DNA of 64,000 nt from an uncultured Acidobacteriota bacterium (GTDB taxonomy: Bacteria > Acidobacteriota > Thermoanaerobaculia > UBA5066 > Gp7-AA6), in NCBI GenBank assembly GCA_963763535.1, contig CAVXOX010000008.1, positions 963,975-1,027,974 of the forward strand. The letters are read 5' to 3'. The notes under the pieces were generated by a model. It did no database searches. It was not told the DNA's origin and worked only from the letters and a program-made list of their open reading frames with translations. Each line of letters begins with the position of its first letter. The first letter of the stretch is position 1. Positions 8,238 through 61,481 of this stretch are shown piece by piece. Made by a program: the position numbers and the translations under genes.

Positions 8238-8395
8238 TGTCATCCCGAGGCCCATAGGGCCGAGGGATCCCTTTAGAAGCCGCAGCCGGACTAAGAAAGG
8301 GATCCCTCGTCGCTCCGCTCCTCGGGATGACAAGACAACCTGCGCTCCTCGGGATGACGAAACGGCCAGCGCGCTCCTCGGCATGACCGGGACAG
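8238..8395. mobile_element. MITE-like double-palindrome element, copy A, with three tandem copies of its right terminus
   Basis: GTCATCCCGAGG...CGAGGGATCCCTTT...AAAGGGATCCCTCG...CTCGGGATGAC, followed by a reiterated cgctcctcgggatgac. Sits in the coxL-coxM intergenic region. Confidence 0.6.
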
Positions 8396-19149: not shown

Positions 19150-19235
19150 GTCATCCCGAGCGCGGCGAGGGATCCCTTCTCAAGTTATGGTGCGTGCTTC
19201 AAAGGGGTCCCTCGGGTCGTCGCCCTCGGGATGAC
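19150..19235. mobile_element. MITE-like double-palindrome element, copy B, in the divergent promoter region between the permease and ychF
   Basis: gtcatcccgagcgcggcgagggatccc...aaaggggtccctcgggtcgtcgccctcgggatgac. Confidence 0.6.
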
Positions 19236-26711: not shown

Positions 26712-26861
26712 CGGTCATCCCGAGGGCGTCGAGCCCGAGGGATCCCTTTCGCAGCCGCACTGAGACATCAAAGGGATCCCTCGCTGCGCTCGGGATGACA
26801 AGAGGCGTGCAGCCGTATCCAGATTTGAAAGGGATCCCTGGCGACGCTCCGCTCGGGATGA
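26712..26861. mobile_element. MITE-like element, copy C: one full copy plus one right-half copy in tandem
   Basis: ggtcatcccgagggcgtcgagcccgagggatccctttcgcagccgcactgagacatcaaagggatccctcgctgcgctcgggatgac, then gaaagggatccctggcgacgctccgctcgggatgac. Confidence 0.6.
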
Positions 26862-26873
26862 CGCGAAGGAGAC

Positions 26874-38680: not shown

Positions 38681-39664
38681 ATGAAGCGGCTCGCTCGCCG
38701 GGCCGCCGCCGTGGGCGGCGCGGCCGCCGCGGCCTACGTCGGCGGGTCGTATCTGCTCGCGCGAGTCGTCGCGCGGCGGCTCATCTCCCCAACCGGCTTC
38801 GGGCCGGCGCCGGCGCGGCACGAAGACCTCCTCGCCGCGCTGGAATCGAGCGCGACGGTGGTCGCGAACCTGAAGCACCGCGGCAGCGCGCGCCTCCCCG
38901 TCGAGCTCTCGGCCACCTTCGCATCGCCGGGCGAGCCCGAGACGCGGCCGACCATCATCTTTCTCCACGGCAAGGGCGGCGACGCGAGCGAGTGGGAATC
39001 CGACGCGCTCCGCGCGCTGCGTCTCGGCTACAACGTCCTGCTGCCCGACCTGCGCGGCCACGGCCGCAGCGGCGGGACGTTCTTCACCCTCGGCTTTCTC
39101 GAGAAGGAGGACCTCGCGCTGACGGTCGCCGCGGCGCGGGACGGCTTCGGCGTCGATCCGGAGCGTCTCGGCATCCACTCCTGCTCGGCGGGATCGTCGG
39201 TGGCGCTCGAGTTCGCGGCCCATCGATCGGGTGTGCGCGCGATCTGGCTCGAGTCGCCGTTCGCGAGGCCCCGCGAGATGGCGCGGCACTACCTCTCGCG
39301 CGCGACCCGCCTGCCGCGCTGGCTCCTCGGCCTGACCTCCCACTGGGCGATCGCCCGTTCGCTGGCGGAGATCCGCGAGGCGCTCGGCGTCCCGCCCGGA
39401 GAGGCGGGCGGGCTCGACGCCGTGGACCCGATTCGCACCGCCACGCGGGTGACGGCGGCGGTACTGCTCGTGCACGGCGACGAGGACCGCATGGTGCCGC
39501 CGCGCTTCAACCACGAGCTCGCCGCGGTCCTTCCGCCGCGCAGCGCGATCTGGAACGTCGCGGGCGCCGGCCACTGCCATCACCCGGACGAGCCCGCCGT
39601 GGCGGCGAAGATCGCCTATGCGAAGAGGTGGCAGGAGTTCTTCACGACTTACCTGCCGGTGTAG
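38681..39664 (+). CDS. Alpha/beta-hydrolase fold protein (S9/dienelactone-hydrolase-like)
   Basis: Nucleophile elbow HSCSAGS, Asp (HGDEDRMV), His (AGHCHH); N-terminal TM/signal. Confidence 0.7.
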   Translation: MKRLARRAAAVGGAAAAAYVGGSYLLARVVARRLISPTGFGPAPARHEDLLAALESSATVVANLKHRGSARLPVELSATFASPGEPETRPTIIFLHGKGGDASEWESDALRALRLGYNVLLPDLRGHGRSGGTFFTLGFLEKEDLALTVAAARDGFGVDPERLGIHSCSAGSSVALEFAAHRSGVRAIWLESPFARPREMARHYLSRATRLPRWLLGLTSHWAIARSLAEIREALGVPPGEAGGLDAVDPIRTATRVTAAVLLVHGDEDRMVPPRFNHELAAVLPPRSAIWNVAGAGHCHHPDEPAVAAKIAYAKRWQEFFTTYLPV

Positions 39665-40869
39665 ACCGATTCCGCCTCACATCGACCGTTCTGCCCTTCA
39701 GCTGTCCGCACGCCGCTGACGCATCCGGTCCCTTGCTGCGCCGCACCGTGACGGTCACGTGCGCGTCGGCGAGGCGGCCGACGAAGCGGTCGATCACGTC
39801 CTCGGAGGGCCGCCGCAATTCCGGCAGGTAGGTCGGGTCCTCGTTCAACGGGATCACGTTGACCTTCACCGGGAGACCGCGCAGCAGGCGGGCGAGGCGG
39901 ACCGCGTCCTCCTCGCGATCGTTGACGCCGGCGATCAGGACGTACTCGACGAGGATCCGGCGCCGCGGCTCCAGCGGCCACGCGCGCATCGCGGCGAGGA
40001 GTCCCTCGAGCGGATAGGTCTTCGTGATCGGCATCAGCTTCTCGCGCGTCGCCTGGTCGGCGGCGTTCAGCGACACCGCGAGATTCGGGCGCCGCGGGAG
40101 CGCCGCGAACGTCGCGAACGCGGGCGTGATGCCGGAGGTCGACACGGTGACGCGGCGCGGCGGCACGAGCTCGAACAGGATCTCGAGCGCCGGGATCACG
40201 CCGTCGGGATCGAGGAACGGCTCCCCCATGCCCATGAAGACGACGCGCAGGCCGTCGAGGCCGCGCCGGGTCTCGACGAGAACGGCGCGGAGCTGCGCCA
40301 GGATCTCGCCGGCGGTGAGGTTCCGTCCGCCGCCGAGCCGACCGGTCACGCAGAAGACGCAGTCGACGGCGCAGCCGGTCTGCGAGGAGAGGCAGATCGT
40401 GAAGCGCGGGACGGGACTCATCCTTGTGCATCCCGAGGGCCGGCGGCCCGAGGGATCCCTTTCTGCGCCGCACTGTGACTCGGAAAGGGATCCCTCGCTA
40501 CGCTCGGGATGACGAGAGGGCGCCGGCCTCCCGCCTCGCGTCCTCGAACTCGTTCGCGGACGAGCGGGCCGCGTCGCCGGGCATGAACACCGCCTCGATG
40601 AGTGCGCCGTCGGTGAGCCGCAGGCCGAACTTGACGCTCCCGTCCGCCGAGGCGTCGCGGCGGACCACCTCGGGCAGGCGCAGCGGCATGGCCTCGGCGA
40701 GCCGCTCGCGCAGCGCGGCCGGCAGCTCCTTCATCGCGGCGTAGTCGGTGGTGCCGCGGCGATGGATCGCGTCGAACAGCTGGCGTCCGCGGTAGCGCGG
40801 GAGTCCCGACTCCACGGCGAACGCCTCCCACGCGGAGGGAGTGAGACCGAAGGGATCGCGCTCGCCCAT
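39642..40869 (-). pseudogene. rlmN: 23S rRNA/tRNA methyltransferase RlmN (radical SAM) interrupted by a MITE-like insertion
   Basis: N-terminal fragment (ORF 40498..40869) ends ...LTDGALIEAVFMPG then reads into the element to a stop. C-terminal fragment (39642..40421) begins ...PRFTICLSSQTGCAVDCVFCVTG (the CxxxCxxC cluster) in a different frame. The element lies exactly between the conserved FMP and T(L/I)C(V/L)SSQ motifs. Confidence 0.7.
40428..40513. mobile_element. MITE-like double-palindrome element, copy D, inside rlmN
   Basis: gcatcccgagggccggcggcccgagggatccctttctgcgccgcactgtgactcggaaagggatccctcgctacgctcgggatgac. Shares the gcagccgcactg(a/t)gac internal segment with copy C. Confidence 0.65.
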
Positions 40870-40899: not shown

Positions 40900-41304
40900 C
40901 TACTTCGCCGGCTTGCGCGCGGCGGGGGCCTTGCGGTTGCGGACCTTGCGGGTGGGGTCGATCCCGAGCGACTTCAGGAGGCGCAGATCCTTGAGATTGA
41001 TCCGGAACGCGGCGCGCCCGGATTCGCCGGCGCCCTCGTCGGTCTCGACGGCGGCGAGGGTCGCGCGCCGCGACCGGCTGCGGCCCTCCCGCTTGTTCAC
41101 GCCGACCTTCGCGTCGAGAACCATGTAGAGGTTATAGCCCTCGTCGCGGATTTTCTGGATCGAGTCGTGGACGCGGCCCGAGCCGGAGATCGATTCGTTG
41201 ATCGCCTGACCGAGCTCCTTCAACATCGCGCGGAGATGATCCGAGAGTTCCATGTCCGCGGCGATTATCGCTCTCTCGTTGCGAGAATCAAGGATCTTTC
41301 CCAC
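40900..41304 (-). CDS. Hypothetical conserved protein (134 aa, basic C-tail)
   Basis: Complex composition (MGKILDSRNERAIIAADMELSDHLRAMLKELGQ...). No domain recognised. Confidence 0.4.
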   Translation of the reverse strand: MGKILDSRNERAIIAADMELSDHLRAMLKELGQAINESISGSGRVHDSIQKIRDEGYNLYMVLDAKVGVNKREGRSRSRRATLAAVETDEGAGESGRAAFRINLKDLRLLKSLGIDPTRKVRNRKAPAARKPAK

Positions 41305-41395
41305 GCGAAAAAAGTGCTATCCTTTCGTGCCTCCTCGAAACCGCCGCGCGTGTGCGCGCGACCCCCTTCACCCCGTCCGAAGATAAGCTCTTCGC

Positions 41396-42544
41396 ATGTT
41401 CTCGCGGCTCGCGCATCTCTCGTGCACGCGCTGCGGCGCGACGTACGAGCGCGACCGACGCGTGAACGTCTGCGCGCAGTGCGGCGGCGCGCTCTTTCCG
41501 CGCTACCACGCCGTCGCGCTCGACCGCGACGCGGTCGCCGGACGCGCGCGCTCGATCTGGCGCTGGCACGAGCTGATGCCGGTCGAAGAACCGGAGAACA
41601 TCGTCACGCTCGGCGAGGGCGGCACGCCGCTGCTTCGCGCGGACCGCCTCGGCGCGCGGTTCGGGTTCTCGCGATCTTCGCATCAAGGACGAGTCGGGCA
41701 ACCCGACGGGCTCGTTCAAGGCGCGCGGCCTCTCCGCCGCCGTGTCGAAGGCGAAGGAGCTCGGCCACTCGAAGATCGCGCTCCCGACGGCGGGCAACGC
41801 GGGCGGCGCCGCGGCCGCGTACGCGGCGAAGGCGGGCATGGAGTGCCACGTCTTCATGCCCGCGGACACGCCGCCGGTCTTCCGCGATCGAGTGCGAGCG
41901 CTACGGCGCGAAGGTGACGCTCGTCGACGGCCTCATCGACGACTGCGGCCGGATCGTCGCCGCAAACGCGGCGAAGGAGGGCTGGCACGACGTCTCGACC
42001 CTGAAGGAGCCGTTCCGCGTCGAGGGCAAGAAGACGATGGGCTACGAGCTCGCCGAGGACCTCGGCTGGACGCTCCCGGACGCGGTCCTCTACCCCACCG
42101 GTGGCGGCACGGGCCTGATCGGCATGTGGAAGGCGTTCGACGAGATGGAGGAGCTCGGCTGGATCGGCCCGCGGCGGCCGCGGATGTTCGCGATTCAGGC
42201 CGAGGGCTGCGCGCCGATCCCGAAGGCGTTCGCGGAGGGCAAGGACGTCTCCGAGAAGTTCCCGAACGCGCGGACGTACGCCTCGGGGCTGCGCGTGCCG
42301 AAGGCCTTCGCCGATTACCTCATCCTGAAGGACGTCCGCGAGTCCGGCGGCTCGGCGGTCACCGTCACCGACGACGAGATGCGCCGCGCGTGCGACGAGA
42401 TCGGCGCGTGCGAGGGCCTCTTCGTGGCGCCGGAGGGCGGCGCCGTCTGGGCCGCGGCGAAGAACCTGCTGCGCGCAGGGGCTGCTCGACGCGAACGAGC
42501 GAATCGTGCTGTTCAACACCGGGAGCGGCTTCAAGTACCTCTGA
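41396..42544 (+). CDS. thrC: Threonine synthase; about four apparent frameshifts
   Basis: N-terminal Zn-ribbon-like CTRCG...CAQCGG, PLP lysine (NPTGSFKARG), and the remainder of the fold (GNAGGAAAAYAAKAGMECHVFMP; IECERYGAKVTLVDG...; ...LLDANERIVLFNTGSGFKYL*) spread over three frames. One shift is an extra G in a gggg run near 42480. Confidence 0.7.
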
Positions 42545-42596: not shown

Positions 42597-44601
42597 ATGA
42601 GAGCCGTTCGCGAGGCGGTCGGACTTCTTCTCGGCGTTCTGTTCTGTGCTCCGGTCTTCGCCACCGATCTCGTGATCGGCCACGTTCGCGTCAGGGAAAC
42701 TTCATGGGAACCGACGCGGCGGGAGCTGCGGCGATCGGAAACTTCGCGGGCGTCACGATCACCGGCGGAACGTCGATCGACCTCGTCGGAGACGCCGATC
42801 CGGCGGCGCGCAACCTGATCTCGGGCAACATCGTCGGAATTCGAGGTGACCGGGACCGGGTCCGCGAAAATCCTCGGGAACCTGATGGGCATCGACGCCA
42901 GCGGCTCCACCGCCGTCGGGAACGTCACGGGGATCTATCTCTCCGGCTCCTCGAACAACCAGGTCGGCGGCCCGGACCTCGGCGACGCGAACGTCGTCTC
43001 CGGGAACGGCAGCGAAGGGATCGACCTCGACGGCTGAGCAGGTGTCCTCTCCCAAGGCGAGTACCTGCTCGGGACCGAGAGACCGGCGAAGGCGAGGTCC
43101 TCCGCCGGGAGAGCGCGTTCCGGCAGGGCCCGAGAACTTTACCGGGCGACGAAGATCCTCGGGCGACGTCGGCCCCGGGATCGAGCTCAACTACGGCTCG
43201 CTCAAGCACGCATCGTCCAGGACGCGATCAACTCGAACATGATCGGGGCCGCCTTATGGCACCTCTCCGATTCCCAACGGCGGAGCGGGGATCCGCATCG
43301 ACGGCGGCGACTCGCTCCGGATCTTCGGCAACGGGATTTTCTTCAATCCCGTGGGCATCTGGAGGCTCGCGCCCGTGAGCTTCGCGAGCGTCGTCGTCAC
43401 GCAGAACTCCTTCCACGGCAACCACGGCCTCGCGATCGTCCTCGGCCCGGCGGCTGCGATCTCGCCGAACTCGCCCGGCAGCCCGTTCAACTTCCCCTTC
43501 GTGACCTCGGTCACGACCGACGGGACGTCGACGACCTTCGGCGGCCTTTATGCGGGGCCGCCGAACAGAACGTCAGGATCGAGCGCCGAGACCCTGAAGG
43601 CTCCCACGAGCAGTCCGGAACGGCGAAGGCCTGACGTGGTTAGACTCAGTCACGTCATGTCCGCCGGACCGGAAGTCTGGCGTTCGAAGACACGAGTGTT
43701 CGGAGACCTGACGGCGGAGCGGATCGCGGCGACGGCGACGACCGTCCTCGTCCCGCTCGCCCCCGAGGGCGGCAGCCTCCCCACCATCGAAACCTCCGAG
43801 TTCTCGCAGCGCCTGCCGTTCTCGATCGTGCCGCGCTCGGGGCCCGGTGCCGGGGGAAATCCGGTGACGGTCGCGGGCACGAGTTTCGACCCCGCCGCGA
43901 TCTTGAAGATCGGCGGAGCGGCCGCGGGAAGCGTGATCGTGTCGAACGCTGGCCAGATTACGGCGACGACGCCCGCCCTCGCGCCCGGCGCCGCCTACGA
44001 CGTGTCCGTGACCAATCCCGACCTCACCCGAGGCACGATCGCGCTCGGCTTCGTCGCCGACTTCCTCGACGTCCCGCCGTCCAATACGTTCACGACTACG
44101 TGACGTCGCTCGCGGCCAACGGCATCACGGGCGGCGTCGGCGGAGGCAACTACGGCGTTTCTCTCTCCGTCCTGCGCCAGCAGATGGCCGTCTTCCTGCT
44201 CAAGGCCCGCACGGCCTGTGCTACGTCCCGCCCGCCTGCACCGGCGTCTTCCCCGACGTGCCCTGCCCGTCCACCTTCGCCGACTGGATCGAGGCCCTCG
44301 CAGCCGAGGGCATCACCGGCGGCTGCGGCGGCGGCAGCTACTGCCCGCAGAACCCCGTCCGACGCGACCAGATGGCCGTCTTCCTTCTGAAGGCCGAGCA
44401 CGGCTCGGGCTACACGCCTCCCGCCTTGCACCGGCGTCTTCCCCGACGTCCCGTGCTCCTCGCCGTTCGCGCCCTGGATCGAGCAGCTCGCCGCCGAGAA
44501 CATCACCGGCGGCTGCGGCGGCGGCAACTACTGCCCCGGCAACGACAACACGCAGGGGACAAATGGCCGTCTTCGTCGTCAAAACATTCGGCCTGCAGTA
44601 G
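42597..44601 (+). pseudogene. Decayed remnant of the CSLREA/beta-helix/IPT/SLH-like paralog family
   Basis: ATG at 42597 with an AGGAGG RBS and signal peptide. Beta-helix-like GN.IG segments. An IPT-like block ([32 protein letters not shown]...). C-terminal repeat fragments ([67 protein letters not shown]). All are scattered over three frames, and large sections are missing relative to the intact 740-aa paralogs. Confidence 0.55.
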
Positions 44602-44642: not shown

Positions 44643-47249
44643 TTGCCGGTTCCATGCGCTACGCATCCCTGCGCCCCCGGCTCGATCCGCTCCTCCCGCA
44701 CGGTGGAGAAGCCCGGCCGCTACGTCGGGCTCGAGCGAAACCTCGTCCGCAAGGACCTCTCGAAGGCGACGGTCACGCTCGCGCTCGCCTTCCCCGACAC
44801 GTACGAGATCGGGATGAGCCACACGGGGCTGAAGATCCTCTACGAGCTCGTCAACCGCCGGGAGGACTTCGCCTGCGAGCGCGTGTACGCGCCGTGGGTG
44901 GACCTCGAGGCGAAGATGCGCGAGGCCGGAATCCCGCTCTTCTCGACGGAGTCGTTCGCGCCGGCCGCCGACTTCGACGTGCTCGGCTTCTCGCTCCAGG
45001 CGGAGCTGAACTACTCGAACATCCTCAACATGCTCGACCTCGCCGGGCTCCCGGTCTGGCAGCGCGAGCGCCGCGAGACCGACCCGATCGTCCTCGGCGG
45101 CGGGCCGTGCACGGCGAACCCGGAGCCGATCGCCGACTTCTTCGACGCCTTCCTCGTCGGCGACGCCGAGGAAGCGCTGCCGGTCTTCCTCGACGCGTAC
45201 CGGGACGCCCGCGCGCGCGGCCTCTCGCGCCGGGAGCTCCTCGTCCATCTCGCCGCGATCGACGGCATCTACGTGCCGTCGCTCTACGACGTGACGTACC
45301 GCGAGGACGGCCGCATCGCCGCGATCGAGCGCAACGATCCGCGCGCGCCCGAGCGCGCGAAGCGCACCTGGGTCCCCGTGCTCAAGCCCGAGTACTACCC
45401 CGAGAAGCCGATGGTGCCGTCGGTCGAGATCGTGCAGGACCGCCTCGGCCTCGAGGTCATGCGCGGCTGTACGCAGGGCTGCCGGTTCTGCCAGGCCGGC
45501 TACTGGTACCGGCCGGTGCGCGAGCTCGACGCCGGCGACGTCGCCGAGATGACGAAGAAGTTCATCGCCGACTCCGGCTGGAGCGAAGTCGGGCTGCTCT
45601 CGCTCTCGACGGCGGACTACTCGCAGATCGAGCCGCTCGTGAAGTGCCTCGCGCCGCAGCTCTCCGACCGGCGCGTCTCGATCTCGCTGCCGTCGCTGCG
45701 CGCCGAGGCCTTCTCGGTCGGCCTCGCCGACGCGGTCTCCGAGGTGCGCAAGTCCGGCTTCACCTTCGCGCCGGAGACGGGCTCGGACCGCCTGCGCCGC
45801 GTCATCAACAAGACGTTCACCAACGCCGACATGATCGCGGCCGCCGACGTCGCGTTCGCGCGCGGCTGGGACCTGATCAAGGTCTACACCATGATCGGTC
45901 TGCCGACGGAGACGAGGGAGGACCTCGACGAGCTCGTCGCGCTGGTCCAGGGCATCCTCGCGCAGGGGCGCCGGCACGGGCGCAAGAACGTCAACGTCTC
46001 GGTCGGCTCCTTCGTGCCGAAGTCGTGGACGCCGTTCCAGTGGGCGCCGTTCGACGGCGTCGAGACGCTCGAGAAGAAGCTCGGGTACCTGAAGGATCGG
46101 TTCCGCTCCGTGCGCGGCGCGAAGATGAAGTGGCACGAGCCGCGCGAGGCCGAGATCGAGTGCGTCCTCTCCCGCGGCGACCGGCGCGCCGGGCGGATCC
46201 TGCACACGGCATGGAAGTCGGGCGTGCGGTTCGACGGCTGGACCGAGCACTTCCGCCACGACCTCTGGATGAAGGCGTTCGAGGCCGAGGGAATCCCGAA
46301 GGAGACGTACCTCCGCGCCTACGACCTCGACGAGATCCTGCCGTGGGACGTCCTCGACGTGTCGATCAAGAAGCGCTGGCTCCAGATCGAGCTGATCAAG
46401 GCGAAGAAGGAGATGCGGACCGAGGACTGCAAGTGGGGCCACTGCTACGCCTGCGGCGTGCCCGGCAACGGCGAGGACACGGTGCTCGCGACCGCGATGC
46501 CGGGAACGCTCCCGAGCTTCGACGCCGCGACGGCACCGGCGAGCGATCCCGCCGCGTATCGCGACGTCGCCAAGGGCGCCGCGTACCGGCAGAAGGCGAT
46601 GCCCGAGCTTCCCTCCGCCTCGCGCCGAGCGACGCAGGGCGACCGCGTCTTCCGGCACCGCGTCACCTTCTCGAAGACCGGCGACGCGCGCTTCCTCTCG
46701 CACCGCAACACCATGGACGTCCTCGAGCGCGCGATCCGCGCGGCCGGGCTGCCCGCGCGCTACTCCGAAGGCTTCAACCCGCACATGAAGCTCTCGATGG
46801 GGCCGGCGCTCGCGCTCGGCCTCGAGAGCCACGAGGAGATCTTCGACGTCGAGGGGATCGCGCCGTTCTCCGCCGACGCGGCCGCCCGGATCTGCGGGAA
46901 GCTGCCGACGGGTCTGGAGGTCCTCGACGTGCGGGCGCTTCCCCCGGGCGAGCCGTCGCTCGCGAAGGCCGTGAAGGCGGCGCGCTACGCGGTGCGCCTC
47001 GACTCCGAGGAGCACCTCCGCCGCGCGGGCGACGCGCTCGCGGGCGGCTGGCGCGACGCGCTTCCGGCGCTCCGCGCGATGTCGCTCGAGGCGGACGGCG
47101 CCGCGACGCGTCTCCGCTTCGAGGTCAACCTCGATCAGGCGGCGGGCGAGACCGCGACCGCGAAGAAGGTCCTCGAGGGACTTCTCGCGATTCCTCCGGC
47201 CGAGCAGGCGGGGATGTCGGTCGTGCGGGAAGCCACCGTGCTCGGATGA
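44643..47249 (+). CDS. Radical SAM protein, fusion of TIGR03960-like (B12-binding-like + radical SAM) and TIGR03936-like (DUF2344) modules
   Basis: CxxxCxxC = CTQGCRFC. The C-terminal TFSKTGDARFLSHRNTMDVLERAIRAAGLP...YSEGFNPHMKLS matches the radical-SAM-linked protein family. The start is ambiguous: TTG at 44643, GTG at 44703, or ATG at 44654 one frame off. Confidence 0.75.
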   Translation: MPVPCATHPCAPGSIRSSRTVEKPGRYVGLERNLVRKDLSKATVTLALAFPDTYEIGMSHTGLKILYELVNRREDFACERVYAPWVDLEAKMREAGIPLFSTESFAPAADFDVLGFSLQAELNYSNILNMLDLAGLPVWQRERRETDPIVLGGGPCTANPEPIADFFDAFLVGDAEEALPVFLDAYRDARARGLSRRELLVHLAAIDGIYVPSLYDVTYREDGRIAAIERNDPRAPERAKRTWVPVLKPEYYPEKPMVPSVEIVQDRLGLEVMRGCTQGCRFCQAGYWYRPVRELDAGDVAEMTKKFIADSGWSEVGLLSLSTADYSQIEPLVKCLAPQLSDRRVSISLPSLRAEAFSVGLADAVSEVRKSGFTFAPETGSDRLRRVINKTFTNADMIAAADVAFARGWDLIKVYTMIGLPTETREDLDELVALVQGILAQGRRHGRKNVNVSVGSFVPKSWTPFQWAPFDGVETLEKKLGYLKDRFRSVRGAKMKWHEPREAEIECVLSRGDRRAGRILHTAWKSGVRFDGWTEHFRHDLWMKAFEAEGIPKETYLRAYDLDEILPWDVLDVSIKKRWLQIELIKAKKEMRTEDCKWGHCYACGVPGNGEDTVLATAMPGTLPSFDAATAPASDPAAYRDVAKGAAYRQKAMPELPSASRRATQGDRVFRHRVTFSKTGDARFLSHRNTMDVLERAIRAAGLPARYSEGFNPHMKLSMGPALALGLESHEEIFDVEGIAPFSADAAARICGKLPTGLEVLDVRALPPGEPSLAKAVKAARYAVRLDSEEHLRRAGDALAGGWRDALPALRAMSLEADGAATRLRFEVNLDQAAGETATAKKVLEGLLAIPPAEQAGMSVVREATVLG

Positions 47250-51472: not shown

Positions 51473-53683
51473 ATGAAGATCACCGTCCGCGGATTCGCCC
51501 TGCTCCTGTCCGGCCTCCTGATCGCCCTCGCCGCGCCAGGCGCCACGTTTACCGTCACCAACACGAACGACAGCGGACCGGGCTCGCTTCGTCAGGCGAT
51601 CCTCGACGCCAACGCCAGCCCTGGCGCGGACACGATCGCGTTCGCGATCCCCGGCGCCGACCCCGGCTGCGACGGCACGGGCGTGTGCACGATCGCGCCG
51701 ACGTCTCAGCTCCACTCCATCGACGAGGCGGCAATGCTCGACGGGTACACGCAGCCGGGCGCCTCGCTCAACACGGCGACGTTCGGATCGAACGCGGTGC
51801 TCAAGATCGTGGTTTCGGGAGTGAACATCCCGGGTGCGGGCGGCATCCTGCCCGGCGCGGCGGGCGTGACGGTTCGGGGCGTCGTCATCAATGGCGGCTT
51901 TCACTCGGCCATCGACATCCTGACGGAGGGCGACGTCCACGTCGAAGGCTGCTTCATCGGGACCGACGCCTCGGGGTCGAGCGCCGTTCCGAACACCGTC
52001 GGCGTCGACTTCTTCCTGAAGGGCGTCGGCAGCGTCATCGGCGGCCCGGCCCCCGGCCAGCGCAACGTCATCGGCTCCGGCCAGCACGGCGTCAGCGGCA
52101 GCAATGTGGCGGGCGCGACGATCCAGAACAACCTGATCGGCACGGACAAGAGCGGCGTCGTCACGCTGCCCCAGGCCGTCGGCGGCGACGGCATCGCGAT
52201 CGGCGCCTGCAATGCCGGAGATCCGCTCGATTCGATTCTCGACAACGTCGTCGCCGGCTTCTCAGGCTATGCGATCCACAACAGCTGCCTGCCCGCGACC
52301 ATTCAGGGCAACCACATCGGCATCGACGCGACGGAAACCGTCGTCTTTGCTCCCGTGACCACGTACGGCATCGCTCCCGGCGAGGGCTCGATCGTCGGCG
52401 GCGTCAACCCCGGCGAGGGCAACGTCATCACCGGGATGCGGGGCGTCGGCATTCTCGGCGACAACTTCGCCGGTGGCACGATCCGGGGCAATTCGATCTG
52501 GGGAAACGGCGGGAACCCGAATTACTCGGGCCTCGGCATCGACATGCTCGGCGACGGGCCGACGAAGAACGACCCGGGAGACGCCGACATGATCCAGAAC
52601 TTTCCCGTCCTGAAGACGGTCACGAACGGCGCGACGACGCACGTCACGGCCGCCCTGCACTCGGCGGCATCGACCCTCTACGACGTCGACTTCTACGCGA
52701 ACCCCGCCTGCTCGAACTTTCCGCGCGAGTACGACGAGGGCAAGACGTTCCTCGGGTCGACCCAGGTGACGACGAATGGCTCGGGCACGGCATCCATCGA
52801 CGTCACACTCCCGGTCGCGACCGAAGACGGCTCCCGCCTCACGATGGTTGCCACGAACCACGCGACGGGCCGCTCCTCCGAGTTCTCGCAGCGCCTCCCC
52901 TTCCTCGTCCTGCCGTCGTCGGGACCCGCGGGGACCGGAATCCCGATGACGATCTACGGCACCGACTTCGCCGCCGGCGCAACGGTGGCGATCGCCGGCG
53001 CCCCCGCCACGGCCGTCACGGTCGTGAACGACGGCCAGATCAGCGCCACCTCGCCGATTCTGACTCCCGGCACCGTCAACGATCTCGTCGTGGCCAACAC
53101 GGATGGCACGACGGGAACGCTCGTCAAGGGCTGGGTCGCCGACTTCCTCGACGTCGACGGAGGCAACCAGTTCTACCAGTTCGTCACGACGCTCGTCTCG
53201 AACGCGATCACCGTCGGCGTCGGGAGCGGCGCGTACGGAATCGGCCAGCCGACGCTGCGTCAGCAGATGGCGGTGTTCCTGCTCAAGGCCGAGCACGGCC
53301 TCTGCTATGCGCCGCCGCCCTGCTCCGGCGTTTTCCCGGACGTTCCGTGCTCGTCGAACTTCGCGCCCTGGATCGAGCAGATGTCCGCCGAGGGGATCAC
53401 CGGCGGCTGCGGCGGCGGCAGTTTCTGTCCGAGTAGCCCCGTCCGGCGCGACCAGATGGCCGTCTTCCTGCTGAAGACCGAGCACGGCTCGTCGTACTCG
53501 CCGCCCGCCTGCGCCGGCGTCTTCCCGGACGTGCCGTGCTCCTCCCCCTTCGCACCGTGGATCGAGCAGCTCTTCAACGAGCAGGTCACGGGCGGCTGCG
53601 GCGGCGGGAACTACTGCCCGGCGAACGCCAATACCCGCGGCCAGATGGCGGTGTTCATGGTCAAGACCTTCCATCTCCAGTAG
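51473..53683 (+). CDS. Surface-protein paralog 1 (736 aa): signal peptide, CSLREA-like N-motif, right-handed beta-helix repeats, IPT/TIG, three Cys-rich SLH-like repeats; intact
   Basis: ATG at 51473 with a [46 protein letters not shown] repeats. [60 protein letters not shown]. Three repeats (...[12 protein letters not shown]..., ...[12 protein letters not shown]...) ending KTFHLQ*. Confidence 0.8.
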
Positions 53684-54068
53684 CGCTTCACATGCCGTCC
53701 TTTCATGGGGCCTTCCTGGAGAAGGGAGGCCGCGCTTCTTGTCGGCGCCGACGGCGCGAGGGCGCCGGGGTTCGTCCCCCCGGAGAGGAAAGAGCGCCCG
53801 GATCGGCGATAGACTCCGCGGCACGCTGAGGAAGGAGGATCGCGCCATGCGCTTTCGTCTCGGCCTCGCCGGTGCGCCGCTCACCGCCGTTCTGCTACGC
53901 CGGTTCACCCTCGTCGACCGAGTCACTCGCAGATCTTGTCGATCACCGGCAACTGCGTGGCGTCAACGATGTCCGCTCGATCCGAACTCGGCATGCGAAT
54001 GCGATTTTCATCGCTGAAATGTTTCGGCTGCCATAGCGGCGGAGGTCCACCCTCCGGAGGGAGGTCTG

Positions 54069-56346
54069 ATGCGACGCTTCCATCTCGTTCTCACGGCAAT
54101 CCTCGCCACGGTCACGGCCTCGGCCACCACGTTCACCGTCACCAACACCAGCGACAGCGGCGCCGGCTCGCTCCGGCAGGCGATCACCGACGCCAACGCG
54201 AACGCGGGCGCCGACACGGTCGACTTCAACATCCCCGGCTCCGATCCGAACTGCGAGCGGGACCGGCGTCTGCACGATCACGCCGACGGCGTCCGAGCCT
54301 GCCTCTGATCACCGATGCCCTGACGATCGACGGCTACACGCAGCCGGGAGCCGCGGTCAATACGTCCGCAACGGGCACGAACGCGGTGCTCAAGATCGTG
54401 CTCTCCGGCGCCAACGCGCCATCGGGGTCCTCGGGTCTGGGCCTCGGCGCGAACTCGATCACGATCCGCGGGCTGGTGATCGGGAGGGGATTCCTCGACG
54501 GAATCGCGGCCGGCTTAGTCAGCGACCTTAAGGTCATCGGCTGCTTCATCGGCGTCGACACGACGGGCAACACGGCGTTTCCTAACATCCGCAACGGGAT
54601 CTATTTCGCGTCACGGACGGCGTCACGATCGGCGGCACGGCACCCGCCGACCGCAACCTGATTTCCGGGAACGGGAACATCGGCTTGGCCGTCGATCTCG
54701 GCGAGCACGACGGGGCCCAACGTCATCCTGGGAAACCTCGTCGGGACCAACGCCGCCGGAACCGCCGCGATCCCCAACTCATCGGACGGGGTGGTCGTGA
54801 GCACCAACGGGCTCGGCGGCTCATTCACGATCGGCGGGTCCGCGGCCGGCGCCGGCAACGTCATCTCCGGCAACGGCGCGCGCGGCCTCTTCGTCGGCGG
54901 CTTCGGCAGCGGGACCGCCTTCACCGTGCAGGGCAACCTCGTCGGCACCGACGCGACCGGGACGCTGCCGGTTCCGAACGGCAGCTACGGCGCTTCGCGC
55001 CGTCTCCAACGGCGCCGCCATCGGAGGCATCGGGGCCGGCGAAGGCAACGTGGTCGCATACAACACCGGCGGCGGCGTGGTGGACGACGCGGGAGAGACC
55101 AACGTCTCGATTCGGGGCAACTCGATTCATGACAATGGATTCGGTTTCCTCGGGCACGGCGTCGGCATCGATCTGAGCGTCAACATCGGCGGCGACGGAG
55201 TCACGCCGAACGACCCGGGCGACGGCGACACGGGCCCGAACAACTACCAGAACTTCCCGATCGTCTCCTCGGCGGCGGCGCTCGCCCCGTCGAGCGGCAC
55301 GCATGTGACGGGCGTCCTGCACTCGACGCCCTCGACCACCTTCGATCTCGACTTCTACGCGAACGACGCGTGCATTCCACACCCCCACGACTTCCTCCAG
55401 GGGCGGACCTACCTCGGGTCCGGGCCAGGTCATGACGGACGGCTCGGGAACCGGGTCGTTCTCCATCGACGTGGCCGGGACGATCCAGCCGGGCGAGCGC
55501 GTCAGCGCGACCGCCACGGACCCGACCGGCAACACGTCCGAGTTCTCGCAGAGGCTTCCCTTCTCCATCAACCCGGCCTCGGGAGACCCGGCGGGCGGCG
55601 CGGCGGTGACCATCTCCGGCACCGACTTCCTCGCCGGCGCGACGGTCACGATCGGCGGCGTCGCCGCGACGAACGTCAACGTCGGGAGCTTCAACAGCCT
55701 GACGGCGAATGCGCCCGCGCTCGCGCCGGGCTCGCTGAACGACGTCGTGGTGACGGACTCGGACGGCGCGAGCGGCACGCTCGAGGCCGGCTACGTGGCG
55801 GACTTCCTCGACGTCCCGCCGTCCCAGCAGTTCTACAGCTACGTGACGACGCTCGTGACGAGCAAGATCACGGTGGGCGTCGGCGGCGGCAACTACGGGG
55901 TGGGCCAGGACACCCTGCGCCAGCAGATGGCGGTCTTTCTGCTGAAGGCCGAGCACGGACTGTGCTACACGCCACCGCCGTGCACGGCCCAGCTCTTCGG
56001 CGACGTGCCCTGCTCCTCGGGCTTCGCGCCCTGGATCAACGAGCTCGTCGCCGAGGGAATCACCGGAGGGTGCGGCGGCGGCAACTATTGTCCGACGAAC
56101 CCGGTCCTGCGCCAGCAGATGGCCGTCTTCCTGCTGAAGGCGGAGCACGGCTCCTCCTACGTCCCGCCCGGATGCGCCGGGGTCTTTCTCGACGTGCCCT
56201 GCCCCTCGCAATTCGCCGACTGGATCGAGCGGCTCGCCGCGGAGGCCATCACCGGAGGTTGTGGCGGAGGCAACTACTGTCCGAGCTCGACGGCCAATCG
56301 CGGCCAGATGGCGACGTTCGTCGTCAAGACCTTCAACCTTCAGTGA
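54069..56346 (+). pseudogene. Surface-protein paralog 2, same architecture, broken by about six frameshifts
   Basis: ORFs 54069..54308, 53936..54661, 54791..55132, 55050..(55450) and 55432..56346 hold successive conserved segments in different frames (for example NIPGSDPNC|[14 protein letters not shown]|TDGVTIGG, GSYGAS|...GVAISNGAA, YLGSG|QVMTDGSG). Confidence 0.55.
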
Positions 56347-56375
56347 CTCGTCAACCCCGGAGAAGGAGATCGATC

Positions 56376-58685
56376 ATGAAACCCCTGGTCCGGATCTCGA
56401 TCAAAATCGCTTTCCTCGCCGCCTGTCTCGCCGCCGCAGTGCCGCTCATCGCCGCCACCTACACCGTCACAAATACCGGCGACAGCGGCGCGGGATCGTT
56501 GCGCGACGCCATCAACCAGTCCAACGCGAGCGTCGGGGTCACCGACACGATCGCTTTCAACGTCACAGGCACCGGGTGTGCCGGCTCTCCGGCCGTCTGC
56601 ACGATCAAGCCGCTCGCTCCCCTGCCCAACATCACCGACGCCGTGATCGTCGATGGCTACACACAGCCCGGCTCGAACCCGAACACGCTCGCGGTCGGCG
56701 ACAACGCCGTGCTCCTGATCGAGCTCGACGGCAGCCAGATCGGCACCTTCGCCTACGGGTTCCTGATCTTCACGGACAACACCACGATCCAGGGACTCGT
56801 GATCAACCGGTTCTCGAACCCCGGGATCGGCATCGACACGACCGGCGGCGGCGGCGCGGGCGGCCACGTCATCCGGGGCAACTTCATCGGGACGAATCCC
56901 GCGGGAACCGCGGCCGCGCCCAACTCGGTATATGGCATCTATGTCCGTTCCCCGAACAACCGCATCGGCGGCCCGAACCCCGCGGATCGCAACGTCATCG
57001 TCGGCGGCTCGGGCGCCTTCGCGACCTGCATCCGGTTCGAGGGGGATTTCGGAGGCGCGACGGATGGAGACGTCGTCCAGGGTAACTACCTCGGAACCGA
57101 CAAGACCGGAACCTTGCCGCTCGGGGGCGGCGACGGCGTCTACATCGGTCCGGGCTCGGGCATCACGGTCGGAGGGGCCGGCGCCGGGGAAGGCAACCTC
57201 ATCTCCGGAAACACCGGCTACGGCATCGACATGACGTCGCCCGGATGCGTGGGCACGATCTCCGGAAACGTCATCCAGGGGAATCTTATCGGCACCGACG
57301 CCTCCGGGACTTCTCCGCTCCCGAACGGCCTCGGCGGCATTCTTCTGAGCTGCACAACCAGCGGTAATCAAATCGGCGGCACGGCCGCGGGCGCCGGCAA
57401 CTTGATCGCCAACAACGGAGTCTCCCCCGGCCAGGGCGGGGGCATCTTCCTCGACTCCACCGCAGGCACCGGAAACGCGATTCGAGCCAACCGGATCTTC
57501 TCGAACAACATCCTCGGTATCGGCCTGAAGGTCAGCTACGCCCTTCCGAACGACCCCGGCGATCCGGACTCCGGTCCGAACAACCTTCAGAACTTTCCGA
57601 TCGTCTCGTCGGCGGCCCCGGGATCCGGAACCACACACATCACCGGCGTGCTCCACAGCACGGCGAACACGACCTACGACCTCGACTTCTTCTCGAATCC
57701 CGCCTGCATCCCGTTCCCCCATGAATATCTCGAGGGCACCGCCTACCTCGGCTCTGGCATGACGACGACGGACGGCGGCGGGACCGGGACATTCGACGTC
57801 GTCGTCCCCGTGCAGATCGGGGCCGGCGAGCACGTGACGGCGACCGCGACCGATCCGGCAGGCAACACCTCGGAATTCTCGCAACGACTGCCGTTCACCA
57901 TCTTCCCGGCGTCGGGCCCGTCGGCGGGAGGCACCTTCGTCTCCATCGGCGGCACGGATTTCGAGGCCGGCGCGACCGTTACGATCGGCGGCGTCGCCGC
58001 GACCAACGTCGTCGTCTCGAACTCGATGAACCTGTCGGCCCAGACGCCGGCCCTCGCCTCGGGCTCCCTCAACGACGTCACGGTCAGCAACACCGACGGA
58101 TCGAGCGGCACGCTGCTCATGGGGTTCGTCGGCGACTTCCTGGACGTGCCGGAGTCCTATCAGTTCTATTCCTTCGTGACCAAGCTCGTCTCGAACGCGA
58201 TCACGGTGGGCTGCGGCGGCGGAGATTACTGCCCCGCGGCCAACGTGACACGCGCGCAGATGGCTGTGTTTCTGCTCAAGGCCAAGTACGGGCTCTGCTA
58301 TGCGCCGCCGCCCGCGAGCGGCACCGTCTTCAACGACGTGCCCGCCAGCGCGTTCGCCGCGGCCTGGATCGAGGCCTTGGCGGCTCTCGGCGTCACCGGA
58401 GGGTGCGGCGGCGGCAACTACTGCCCCAACGGATCCGTCACGCGTGCGCAAATGGCCGTCTTCCTCCTGAAGACGTTCCTGGGAACCACCTACGTTCCGC
58501 CCACCTGCACCGGCGTCTTCGGCGACGTGGTCTGCCCGGGAACGTTCACCGACTGGATCGAGGACCTCTACGCCCGCTCCATCACGGGCGGCTGCCAGGC
58601 GAGTCCGCTTATGTACTGCCCCTCGAACCCGAACACGCGCGGCCAGATGGCGGTCTTCATCACGAAGACCTTCAACCTGCAATGA
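56376..58685 (+). CDS. Surface-protein paralog 3 (769 aa); intact
   Basis: ATG at 56376 with an AAGGAG RBS. ATYTVTNTGDSGAGSLRDAINQSNA. NDPGDPDSGPNNLQNFPIVSSA. HITGVLHSTANTTYDLDFFSNPAC. IPT, then three repeats ending KTFNLQ*. Confidence 0.8.
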   Translation: MKPLVRISIKIAFLAACLAAAVPLIAATYTVTNTGDSGAGSLRDAINQSNASVGVTDTIAFNVTGTGCAGSPAVCTIKPLAPLPNITDAVIVDGYTQPGSNPNTLAVGDNAVLLIELDGSQIGTFAYGFLIFTDNTTIQGLVINRFSNPGIGIDTTGGGGAGGHVIRGNFIGTNPAGTAAAPNSVYGIYVRSPNNRIGGPNPADRNVIVGGSGAFATCIRFEGDFGGATDGDVVQGNYLGTDKTGTLPLGGGDGVYIGPGSGITVGGAGAGEGNLISGNTGYGIDMTSPGCVGTISGNVIQGNLIGTDASGTSPLPNGLGGILLSCTTSGNQIGGTAAGAGNLIANNGVSPGQGGGIFLDSTAGTGNAIRANRIFSNNILGIGLKVSYALPNDPGDPDSGPNNLQNFPIVSSAAPGSGTTHITGVLHSTANTTYDLDFFSNPACIPFPHEYLEGTAYLGSGMTTTDGGGTGTFDVVVPVQIGAGEHVTATATDPAGNTSEFSQRLPFTIFPASGPSAGGTFVSIGGTDFEAGATVTIGGVAATNVVVSNSMNLSAQTPALASGSLNDVTVSNTDGSSGTLLMGFVGDFLDVPESYQFYSFVTKLVSNAITVGCGGGDYCPAANVTRAQMAVFLLKAKYGLCYAPPPASGTVFNDVPASAFAAAWIEALAALGVTGGCGGGNYCPNGSVTRAQMAVFLLKTFLGTTYVPPTCTGVFGDVVCPGTFTDWIEDLYARSITGGCQASPLMYCPSNPNTRGQMAVFITKTFNLQ

Positions 58686-58852
58686 CGGGAAGGCCACACG
58701 GGGAAGCGGATGGCGGGTTGATCACGAGGACCTTCCACCTCCAATAGCGTTCCGCTGGGCGCGCCTCCGTTCGGGGGCGCGCCTTCTCTGCCCTATTCCT
58801 CCCGCGCCGCCGATGCCGCGGGATAGACTTCGCTTTCCTAAAAGGAGAATCA

Positions 58853-61303
58853 ATGCGACTCCGCCTCGCGCTCGCCGGAGCCCTGCTCGCGCTTCCCGTC
58901 GCCGGCGCGACGTTTACCGTCACCAATGTCAACGACTCCGGCGCGGGCTCGCTGCGCCAGGCGATCCTGGACGCCAACGCCAATCCGGGCGCGGACACGA
59001 TCGCCTTCAGCATCGCGGGAAGCGGGGTGCAAACGATCGCGCCGCTGACCCCCCTCGACACGATCACCGACGCGGTCACGATCGACGGGTACTCGCAGCC
59101 GGGCGCATCGGCGAACACGAATCCGCCGGAGATGGGCACGAACGCGGTTCTCCGGATCGAGCTCGACGGAACGCACTCGGGCGGCACGGTGGACGCGGGC
59201 GCGTTGAAGACGCAGGGGCCCGCGAACTCGAACGTCACTATCCGCGGTCTCGTCATCAACCGTGCGCCGTCGAGCGGCATCGTCCTCTTCGGCCAGGGAA
59301 GCAACTTCGTCGTGGAGGGCTGTTTCATCGGGACCGACCCGACCGGGCTGACCTCGATCGACCTCGACAACACGCTGGGCATCCTGATCGACGCGAGCGC
59401 CACGAACGTCCGGATCGGCGGCACGACCCCCGCGGCGCGAAACGTCATCTCGGGCAACTCCAGCGCCCAGATCGCGACCGGCTGCGAGCTCAGCGCGGGC
59501 GGTTCGGGCCACCTGATCCAGGGCAACTTCATCGGCCCCGACGCCACGGGCGCCGCGGCGCCGCCGCACAACTACGCCGGGCAGGGCGGCGGCGTCGGCT
59601 TCTGCTACGGGACATCGACCGTGACGCTCGGCGGAGCCACCGCGGCCGAACGAAACGTCATCGCCGGCAATCCGGGCATCGCCGTCAACCTGGGAAGCAG
59701 CTTCAGCAACGACGTCCACGACATCACCGTCCGCGGCAACTACATCGGGACGGACGTGACCGGCGCGGCCCCGCTCGGCAACGGCGAGCATCGGCATCCG
59801 GGTCAACCAGCCCAACAACAGCATCTTCGAACAACGTCATCGCGTCGAGCGGCGCCGAGGGCATCCAGGCCGAGGGGGGCACGACCCTCGTGCAGGGCAA
59901 TTTCATCGGCACCGATGCCACCGGAATGCTTCCGCTCGGCAACGCCAGTGCGGGCATTCACGTCATCAGTTCCGGCGCGCAGATCGGCGGCACAGGCGCG
60001 AACGAGCCGAACGTGATCGCCTTCAACGGAACGTCGACTTTCTCCGGCCACGGCGTGTGGGTCGAGAACGGCACCGGCTCGGCCATCCGCGCCAATTCCA
60101 TCCACGACAACCTCGCCCTCGGGATCGCGTTTCAAACCGGCGGCAGCGCGACGCCGAACGATCCGGGGGACGGCGACATCGGCCCCAACGGCCTCCAGAA
60201 CTTCCCCGTCCTGTCGACGCTGACGCCGGCGTTTCCCGAAACTCCGGAGGCCGGACTGCACATCCAGGGCACCCTGCACTCGACGCCTTCGACGACGTTC
60301 GACCTGGACTTCTTTTCCAACCCGGCGTGCGTGAGGTTTCCCAAGGACTTCCTGGAGGGCGCGAGGTACCTGGGGTCGGGTGTCGTCACGACCGACGGCG
60401 CCGGCACGGGCATCGTCGACGTGACGGTGCCGATCGGGATCGCGGCGGGCGAGCACGTCAGCGCGACGGCCACCAGCCCCTCCGGCAGCACGTCGGAGTT
60501 TTCTCAGCGGCTCCCCTTCTCCCTCAACACCGGTTCCGGCGACGCGGCCGGCGGCGGGGCGATCACGGTCTTCGGCACAGACTTCGAGGATGGGGCGACC
60601 GTCACGATCGGGGGGACTCCCGCGACGGGGATCGTCGTCGTCTCGACAACATCCATCACCGCGGTGACGCCCGCGCTCGCGGCGGGCAGCGCCAACGACC
60701 TCGTCGTGACGAACACCGACGCCACGACCGGAACGCTCGTCAAGGGCTGGGTCGCGGACTTCCTCGATGTTCCGGGCGGACAGCAGTTCCACCAGTTCGT
60801 CACGACGCTCGTTTCCAGCGGGATCACCGCGGGAGTCGGCGGCGGCCTCTACGGCGTCGGCGACGACACGCTGCGCCAGCAGATGGCGGTGTTCCTGCTC
60901 AAGGCCGCCCACGGCCTCTGCTACACGCCTCCGCCGTGCACGACGCAGGTCTTCACGGACGTGCCCTGCTCCTCCAACTTCGCGCCCTGGATCAACGAGC
61001 TCGTCACCGAAGGCATCACCGGCGGTTGCGGCGCGGGCGTCTTCTGTCCCCAGAACCCCGTGCGCCGCGATCAGATGGCGGTGTTCCTGCTGAAGGCCGA
61101 GCATGGGCTGGGATACACGCCGCCCGCCTGCGTCGGCACGTTTCCCGGACGTGCCGTGCTCGTCGAACTTCGCGCCGTGGATCGAGCAGCTCGCGGCGGA
61201 GAACATCACCGGCGGCTGCGGCGGCGGCAACTACTGCCCCGGCCTCTCCGCCAACCGCGGCCAGATGGCCACGTTCGTGGTCAAGACGTTCCAGCTGCAG
61301 TGA
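58853..61303 (+). CDS. Surface-protein paralog 4; two or three apparent frameshifts (about 59790-59830 and about 61145)
   Basis: N-terminal 320 aa in ORF 58853..60016, the middle in ORF 58813..61485, and the C-terminal repeat in ORF 61103..61303. The second shift is an extra C in tttcccggacgtg compared with paralog 1 (ttcccggacgtg in frame). Confidence 0.6.
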
Positions 61304-61481
61304 CGAAGCCGACCCGCTCGCCGCATCTGGGGTTCGTCGAGAACAACCCCGGTTCGCGCCAGCGTTGGTTCGACGGAGGGCCTGCCTCGCTGGTCGGACC
61401 GTCGTCGAGACGTTCCGCGAGCTTGACCATGAAGGTCGGGCCAACTCGGGTAGACTCCGGGCCCGTCCCAAGGAGGCTCGC

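Follow-up and report, generated by a model that had tools for sequence, protein, structure and literature searches.

The question raised by this locus is why rlmN, the gene of a conserved rRNA/tRNA m2A methyltransferase, is read in two frames. The locus lies in a 64,000-nt stretch of DNA from an uncultured Acidobacteriota bacterium (contig CAVXOX010000008.1, positions 963,975 to 1,027,974 of the forward strand; the whole stretch is called the window below), and the conserved parts of the gene stand on either side of an 88-nt palindrome. In an earlier reading, made from the sequence alone, this palindrome was regarded as a miniature inverted-repeat transposable element (MITE) that had inactivated rlmN and had recently been mobile. 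The answer favoured here, with somewhat more than even confidence, is that an old, tolerated element stands in frame in the gene and that the frame is broken by a single base beside it, probably through a sequencing or assembly artefact.

The list of open reading frames (ORFs) gave an N-terminal RlmN ORF (40869-40498, minus strand, 123 aa) and a C-terminal radical-SAM ORF (40421-39642, minus strand, 259 aa), which were placed in unlike phases by three-frame translation (40869 mod 3 = 0, 40421 mod 3 = 2). The N-terminal ORF was matched by PF21016 (RlmN_N) at 8e-9, the C-terminal ORF by Radical_SAM (PF04055). Positions 19-102 of the TIGR00048 profile were covered by the former and positions 104-348 by the latter; because these ranges adjoin, the two ORFs are judged to be contiguous parts of a single RlmN whose frames differ. 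The ORF list, PF21016 and TIGR00048 agree in this with the sequence-only reading, which had described two conserved pieces in different frames. The order of domains is that of RlmN (RlmN_N, then the radical-SAM core), and RFTICLSSQTGCAVDCVFC and ...SAACGQLKG, invariant across the RlmN alignment, are both present; they carry the two mechanistic cysteines, which we take to be the equivalents of E. coli Cys118 and Cys355. A single uninterrupted ORF was not found: there are two frames, with one base in surplus over the in-frame relatives. No second rlmN was found within the 64-kb window. The curated whole-protein cut-off of TIGR00048 is 290 bits; the joined protein with the element excised scored 291.4, the read-through protein corrected by one base 286.6, and the intact relatives P0009 and P0002 scored 292.2 and 297, the lineage as a whole sitting at the cut-off.

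Ca. 175 nt separate the conserved ...IEAVFMP from RFTICLSSQTGC, and 88 nt of these are the palindrome (copy D of the element; 40513-40426), which was thus found where it had been placed earlier, between the FMP and TxCxSSQxGC motifs. The remainder of the separator is not the ca. 50 bp given in that reading; it amounts to ca. 87 nt of lineage-specific linker. The N-terminal ORF and the element had also been described as separate, and this is corrected here: the stop codon of the ORF lies in the element. The listed start of the C-terminal ORF, the ATG at 40421, falls inside the right linker flank. The parts of the locus, in the direction of transcription, are:

40534..40869, minus strand: 5' part of rlmN in the N-terminal frame (start codon, RlmN_N, beta strands to ...IEAVFMP, lineage-specific NEFEDAR segment); from the ORF list, PF21016, TIGR00048 and alignment to 23 relatives.
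40514..40533, minus strand: left linker flank, 20 nt, CGGGAGGCCGGCGCCCTCTC, the probable site of the surplus base; from the offset after the DAR codons, the gap in pairwise alignment and one-base deletion.
40426..40513, minus strand: palindromic element copy D, 88 nt; from probe counts, element alignment, nhmmer profile and RNA fold.
40498..40500, minus strand: TAG that terminates the N-terminal ORF, within the element; from the sequence, three-frame translation and element alignment.
40404..40425, minus strand: right linker flank, 22 nt, AAGGATGAGTCCCGTCCCGCGC; from pairwise DNA alignment with P0009.
39642..40403, minus strand: 3' part of rlmN (RFTICLSSQTGCAVDCVFC with the Cys118-equivalent and CX3CX2C, radical-SAM core, AACGQLKG cysteine, stop); from the ORF list, profiles and alignment.

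The best 120 RlmN proteins were used as relatives, and the linker could be measured in 116 of them. The closest are RlmN proteins of Thermoanaerobaculia (Acidobacteriota; best identity 87-88%). Exact look-up of the product of the C-terminal ORF, and of a 327-aa hydrolase encoded nearby, gave no match, and in a scan of genome contigs with very general peptide patterns from the RlmN alignment the matches listed were at 49% identity or less. From FMP to FTxC the linker is at least 35 residues long in all 116 and is made up of a conserved NEF.DAR followed by ca. 20 hypervariable residues. The full element was found in forward orientation and in frame in the intact rlmN of P0009, P0023, P0045 and P0115; P0011 carries it reversed and P0004 carries a half copy, which makes five full copies and one half copy among these relatives, every one in the same RlmN linker. 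The forward element is translated as HPERSEGSL...KGIPRA.GPRDD, ca. 29 extra residues, and the in-frame reading was seen in the DNA of the corresponding contigs (L001, L087, L088, L090, L091). In-frame read-through was thereby observed for P0009, P0011, P0023, P0045 and P0115; in the window it is obtained only after one base is removed. A gapped metagenome scan for NEF.DA...GTCATCCCGAG returned only two contigs, of the P0009 and P0023 types, both in frame, and a metagenome scan for the right junction specific to the window gave no match. The part of the sequence-only reading that holds is a MITE-like repeat within rlmN and a frame broken as sequenced; insertion as the cause of inactivation is not supported, since intact relatives translate the same element.

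Alignment to the rlmN of intact relatives, which had been proposed as a check, defined the insertion site; a target-site duplication was not visible. Exactly 19 nt lie between the DAR codons and the element in P0009, P0023 and P0045 (19, 19, 19 in L001, L087, L088), against 20 nt in the window, and pairwise alignment with P0009 sets a 1-nt gap near 40524-40527. Because the left flank is 20 nt here and 19 nt in three in-frame relatives, the frame-breaking surplus base most likely lies within 40514-40533. Deletion of one base in 40514-40533, for example 40525, gave a 408-aa ORF with no internal stop. The C-terminal frame is open upstream to 40730, across the whole element, and reads ...RPAPSRHPERSEGSLSESQCGAERDPSGRRPSGCTRMSPVPRFTICLSS... 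and ...APSRHPERSEGSL... as in P0009; linker peptides such as HPERSEGSLSESQCGAER are the product to be expected if this frame is read through. Read in the C-terminal frame, the T of the TAG completes an Arg codon, CGT, which in relatives is CGC or CGG; the change is synonymous there. Compared with P0009, the spacer of the window element has one additional C and 22 nt are absent downstream (sum -21), which leaves the first arm and the catalytic domain in one frame. The absent 22 nt lie in P0009 between two ATGAC repeats, and the right flank of the window corresponds to the distal part of that of P0009. In the in-frame relatives the linker length minus 86 is always 1 modulo 3, therefore the insertion behaves as 87 nt. 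A correction in which the extra Cs in the spacer and in GATGCAC were also treated as errors was tried and rejected: with all three extra bases removed, rlmN remains out of frame. The simplest correction removes one base 5' of the element.

Copy D is an imperfect palindrome of the layout GTCATCCCGAG-CGTAGC-GAGGGATCCCTTT-(spacer)-AAAGGGATCCCTC-GGGCCGCCGGCCC-CTCGGGATGCAC. Its outer inverted repeats are GTCATCCCGAG (40513-40503) and CTCGGGATGCAC (40437-40426), and its inner arms, GAGGGATCCCTTT and AAAGGGATCCCTC, enclose a variable spacer. The canonical length of the element is 86 nt; copy D has an extra C in TTTCCGAG and another in GATGCAC. The RNA fold of copy D reached -56.3 kcal/mol (z = -4.7), and in Rfam no family matched at its gathering score, only generic hairpins below threshold. 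A 25-nt probe from copy D occurred at 3 sites in the window against 0.00 expected, and the core GAGGGATCCC at 7 sites against 0.29 expected. With the nhmmer profile the window total was four full copies and one half copy, those outside rlmN being:

8239..8331, no strand given: element copy A, 93-nt variant, without clear coding signal; from the nhmmer profile and a rough frame plot of G+C at third codon positions (GC3).
19150..19235, plus strand: element copy B, 86 nt, flanked by stretches predicted to code on opposite strands, without clear coding signal itself; from the nhmmer profile and the rough GC3 frame plot.
26714..26862, minus strand: element copy C (26799-26714, 86 nt) with an upstream half copy (26862-26810), without clear coding signal; from the nhmmer profile and the rough GC3 frame plot.

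The features of a MITE are seen in the 11-nt inverted ends (GTCATCCCGAG / CTCGGGATGAC), the length of 86-93 nt, the non-coding character and the multiple copies. The flanks of eight element copies share no direct repeat that could be a target-site duplication. Within the window the element ends are confined to the short copies; a partner insertion sequence bearing them was not seen (the ORFs were not screened for transposases). A literature search on the element sequence and on MITEs in Thermoanaerobaculia returned nothing relevant. The right end of copy A, CTCCTCGGGATGAC, is duplicated ca. 27 nt downstream, and a second CATGAC stands 21-29 nt past the element in P0009 and P0023, in the stretch that is missing from the rlmN copy of the window; the full element unit may include a repeated right end. 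Weaker matches to the element-family profile were found beside the rlmN loci of Acidobacteriaceae and Terriglobus metagenome-assembled genomes (L030 358-451, L034 2976-3004), and the family may, judging by such matches, be widespread in Acidobacteriota. A 21-kb piece of a syntenic contig, L003, was free of the element, against four full copies and a half copy in the 64 kb of the window; it encodes P0001, which with one other protein is closest among the RlmN relatives.

The age of copy D bears directly on the proposal of a recent hop, according to which a MITE transposed into an intact rlmN, its 85-88 nt shifted the frame and brought the stop, and the family is currently mobile. Excision of 85 or 88 nt does restore an ORF (380 or 379 aa; 291.4 bits on TIGR00048), and the stop is located inside the element. 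In the neighbour-joining protein tree, built without the linker, element-bearing genes are dispersed among element-free sisters; the sister of the window rlmN and its closest backbone relative, P0002, has no element, nor has most of its clade. The reversed copy of P0011 and the different site of P0115 indicate in addition that the family entered the linker more than once over evolutionary time. Against this stand the site and orientation, which are the same in three lineages with an intact gene, and the flanks of copy D, which are homologous to those of P0009 over ca. 20 nt on the left and ca. 24 nt on the right. With copies A-C of the same window copy D shares 72-83% identity, with the rlmN-borne copies elsewhere 84-90%. 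There is no visible target-site duplication, the excised linker would have 30 aa, below the minimum of 35 among the 116 measured relatives, and the C-terminal frame through the element agrees with the frame read in the relatives. A recent transposition is on these grounds improbable, and the same site, the homologous flanks and the identities speak against the use of copy D as evidence of recent mobility.

The rlmN-borne copies, being more alike among themselves and having homologous flanks, share descent, and the insertion is therefore old or inherited with a cassette. As far as the DAR and RFT codons, the window rlmN matches that of P0002 at 93-100% of nucleotides in most 90-nt windows; the window linker, flanks included, is 79-87% identical to that of P0009 and cannot be aligned with that of P0002. 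The linker with its element may accordingly be either ancient, with repeated replacement in the sisters, or a cassette that moves by recombination. We infer that the cassette spread among Thermoanaerobaculia rlmN by homologous recombination across the NEFEDAR and RFTxCLSSQTGC codons; the mosaic suggests this course, which is likelier than the recoding considered below. The same mosaic was observed for P0009 and its sister P0010.

How the enzyme would bear such an insert was examined on a model. In the AlphaFold2 model of P0009 (pTM 0.76) the N-terminal domain and most of the radical-SAM core were confident, and residues 100-154, the linker with the element peptide, had pLDDT below 50 and no secondary structure. 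The solved RlmN structures 6fz6, 3rf9 and 5hr6 aligned on either side of the insert, not across it. On the model the element is most likely a tolerated, normally translated passenger in a disordered linker. Differences from the ortholog in L003 by codon position were 5/4/29 in the N part of rlmN and 9/11/61 in the C part; this third-position bias in both halves argues that rlmN evolved under purifying selection while it carried the element. In element-free relatives the linker was found to consist of 7-nt tandem repeats (AAATTCG x4.4 in P0002, L092 453-483; CCGGGAA x3.6 in P0010, L093 1851-1875), which encode peptides of the SEIRN/PKSEIR type; the RlmN linker seems to collect repetitive DNA in general.

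Whether the surplus base is real was judged from the neighbouring genes. The GC3 frame plot of the whole window was too noisy for frameshift counts, and gene-by-gene alignment to L003 (compared with 30.8-47.6 kb of the window) and a stop-to-stop ORF survey were used instead. The threonine synthase gene thrC, which adjoins rlmN (41236-42541, plus strand; its ortholog scores 565 bits on NF006050), is broken into four frames by clean +1 insertions outside homopolymers (41669, 41887 and 42472). The identity of its pieces to the ortholog is 96-97%, and the differences by codon position number 4/5/41 and 1/1/16. In a TIG-domain gene (54090-56343, plus strand; ortholog of a 761-aa protein of L003) +1 insertions were found at 54257, 54693, 54993 and 55416. 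The local lesions are nearly all +1 insertions at non-homopolymer sites, and the single-base insertions in thrC suggest local consensus errors. Because thrC and the TIG-domain gene carry equally clean +1 insertions with no sign of relaxed selection, we infer that the surplus base of rlmN is probably a consensus error as well.

If the base is real, a very recent +1 insertion 5' of a long-tolerated element has made rlmN a pseudogene, with loss of m2A2503 and of tRNA m2A37. The sequence as given is indeed out of frame, no second rlmN is at hand in the 64-kb window, and the lesions are clustered rather than uniform, as could mark a decaying region. The same explanation would require three or four independent recent insertions in thrC with no non-synonymous excess (4/5/41), the prevalence of +1 lesions at non-homopolymer sites looks technical, and there is no sign of relaxed selection in rlmN. 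Mutation in bacteria tends toward deletions, with which the local +1 lesions fit poorly. Loss of rlmN is viable, and natural frameshift alleles linked to linezolid resistance are reported in M. tuberculosis (PMC13158455). A genuine recent frameshift is therefore held to be a possible but clearly less probable explanation, and a likelier one than recent transposition.

Some further observations were made on these neighbours. In its variable N-terminus thrC also has -1 at 41391 and -10 at 41340, and the TIG-domain gene also has -1 at 54608. The latter belongs to an array of TIG-domain paralogs (43258-44598 and 51545-63701, plus strand; the L003 ortholog has a weak SLH match), of which 51545-53680, 56451-58682 and 61479-63701 are apparently intact and 43258-44598 and 58910-61300 are likewise frame-split. 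An RHH-PIN toxin-antitoxin pair, which stands in L003 between thrC and an 889-aa radical-SAM gene, has no counterpart in the window, where TIG-like fragments are found instead; the window ortholog of the 889-aa gene has lost 9 and 66 nt in frame near 46527-46545.

The sequence could also be correct and full-length RlmN still be made, by +1 ribosomal frameshifting in the 45-nt overlap of the two frames, for example at GCG-UAG-C with the stop as slow codon; synthesis of the methyltransferase would then depend on a signal borne by a repeat. The required shift is +1, the stop of the zero frame falls in an overlap where the +1 frame is open, and the structure of -56 kcal/mol spans the site, a strong downstream hairpin that might help. 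In 40500-40545, however, there is no slippery P-site codon, no homopolymer and no Shine-Dalgarno-like stimulator at the spacing of prfB; relatives are already in frame with one base fewer, and the neighbouring genes bear like +1 lesions with no such context. Recoding is accordingly rated the least probable of the explanations, and very improbable in itself. Frameshifting by -1 was rejected: it enters the VIPS... frame, which stops at TGA 40420-40418. The HPERSEG and VIPS frames are stop-free in most copies of the element, and the SSRA frame ends at TGA in most 86-nt copies. A functional split enzyme was also considered and is unlikely; AAGG abuts the C-terminal ATG with no spacer, and the fragment lacks the N-terminal domain.

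Several observations weigh against an old in-frame element with an erroneous base. The excision of 85 or 88 nt restores the frame too, so that frame arithmetic alone does not exclude insertional inactivation; open frames are common at 70% G+C, and the openness of a frame alone is weak evidence. The second-arm peptide obtained by read-through, ERDPSGRRPSGC (two Cys), differs from those of the relatives. The frame-breaking indels are clustered at 40.4-44.6 kb and 54-61 kb, and long ORFs elsewhere (e.g. 8.4-19.1 kb) and ca. 10 syntenic genes are intact, therefore a uniformly error-prone assembly is not the explanation. In other bacteria rlmN is dispensable and natural frameshift alleles are known (PMC13158455).

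With these points taken into account, the old element with a single-base error is still preferred, and the following course is proposed. A non-coding palindrome of 86-88 nt, seemingly an inverted dimer of C/TGTC-tagged units (like a dimer of repetitive extragenic palindromic (REP) sequences, or MITE-like), would sit in the hypervariable linker between the N-terminal RlmN domain and the radical-SAM core; the linker is predicted to be disordered, and the repeat would be tolerated there. The element-bearing linker, with its flanks, appears common to rlmN backbones of different clades and would be old or cassette-borne. The surplus base would take the ribosome out of the HPERSEG frame, which is open and runs on into the catalytic domain, and into the SSRA frame, where the TAG stands 15 nt inside the element. 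Most likely the surplus base is an error of the consensus and the RlmN of the organism has 408 aa.

For annotation this means that rlmN is not to be entered as a gene destroyed by a mobile element; a frameshift flag, pending verification of the sequence, is appropriate for it and for the nearby thrC and TIG-domain genes. An intragenic repeat can be mistaken for the cause of an adjacent break. The locus would also illustrate how disordered linkers act as safe landing sites for selfish DNA.

Four known systems were compared. Bacterial MITEs may disrupt ORFs or fuse with them, as Correia elements do (PMC10969869). The element resembles them in its small size, terminal inverted repeats, lack of an ORF and dispersed, mostly intergenic and occasionally intragenic copies, and differs in that no target-site duplication is detectable at any of the eight copies and that the window, whose ORFs were not screened for transposases, showed no insertion sequence with matching ends. 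The rlmN alleles of M. tuberculosis are likewise single-base frameshifts, but they were confirmed in clinical isolates and are linked to linezolid resistance (PMC13158455), whereas the frameshift of the window is putative and stands amid other suspicious +1 insertions.

CGTC-tagged REPs (Di Nocera et al. 2013) have a CGTC/TGTC tag, a stem of 8-9 bp starting with AT, a loop of 4-5 nt and a 3-nt tail; they occur mostly as inverted dimers with spacers of 20-100 bp, can fold as one large stem-loop and have no dedicated transposase, intragenic dimers encode 20-30 aa, and RPE-4 and RPE-6, two Rickettsia palindromic elements (RPEs), are members (PMC3733652). Each half of the element follows the order C/TGTC, ATCCCGAG, loop, CGAGGGAT, CCC, with the AT start, the CCC tail and the inverted dimer of that family. 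The stems differ in pairing at 6/8 positions (5 contiguous), one unit has an 11-nt loop, and the tags lie outermost in the dimer. Membership of the element in the CGTC-tagged REPs is offered as a lead, the comparison having been made with the description of the family rather than with its consensus.

RPEs (Ogata et al. 2000, 2002) are short non-autonomous palindromes that stand in frame in many genes, are translated and are judged compatible with the fold and function of the host protein (PMC10969869). In the present case five relatives translate the element, and AlphaFold2 puts it in a disordered linker. The sequence is unrelated, the hosts are Acidobacteriota (Thermoanaerobaculia), and the length is 86 nt against ca. 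150 bp for the first-reported RPEs (PMC10969869). A single host gene was examined here, and the window copy is out of frame as sequenced. The element-bearing linker is apparently common to lineages as a cassette, and we know of no such sharing described for RPEs. By behaviour, RPEs nevertheless appear to be the closest known system, and the locus would be an RPE-like case outside Rickettsia, in which several Thermoanaerobaculia lineages translate a palindrome within the linker between the domains of a conserved RNA-modifying enzyme.

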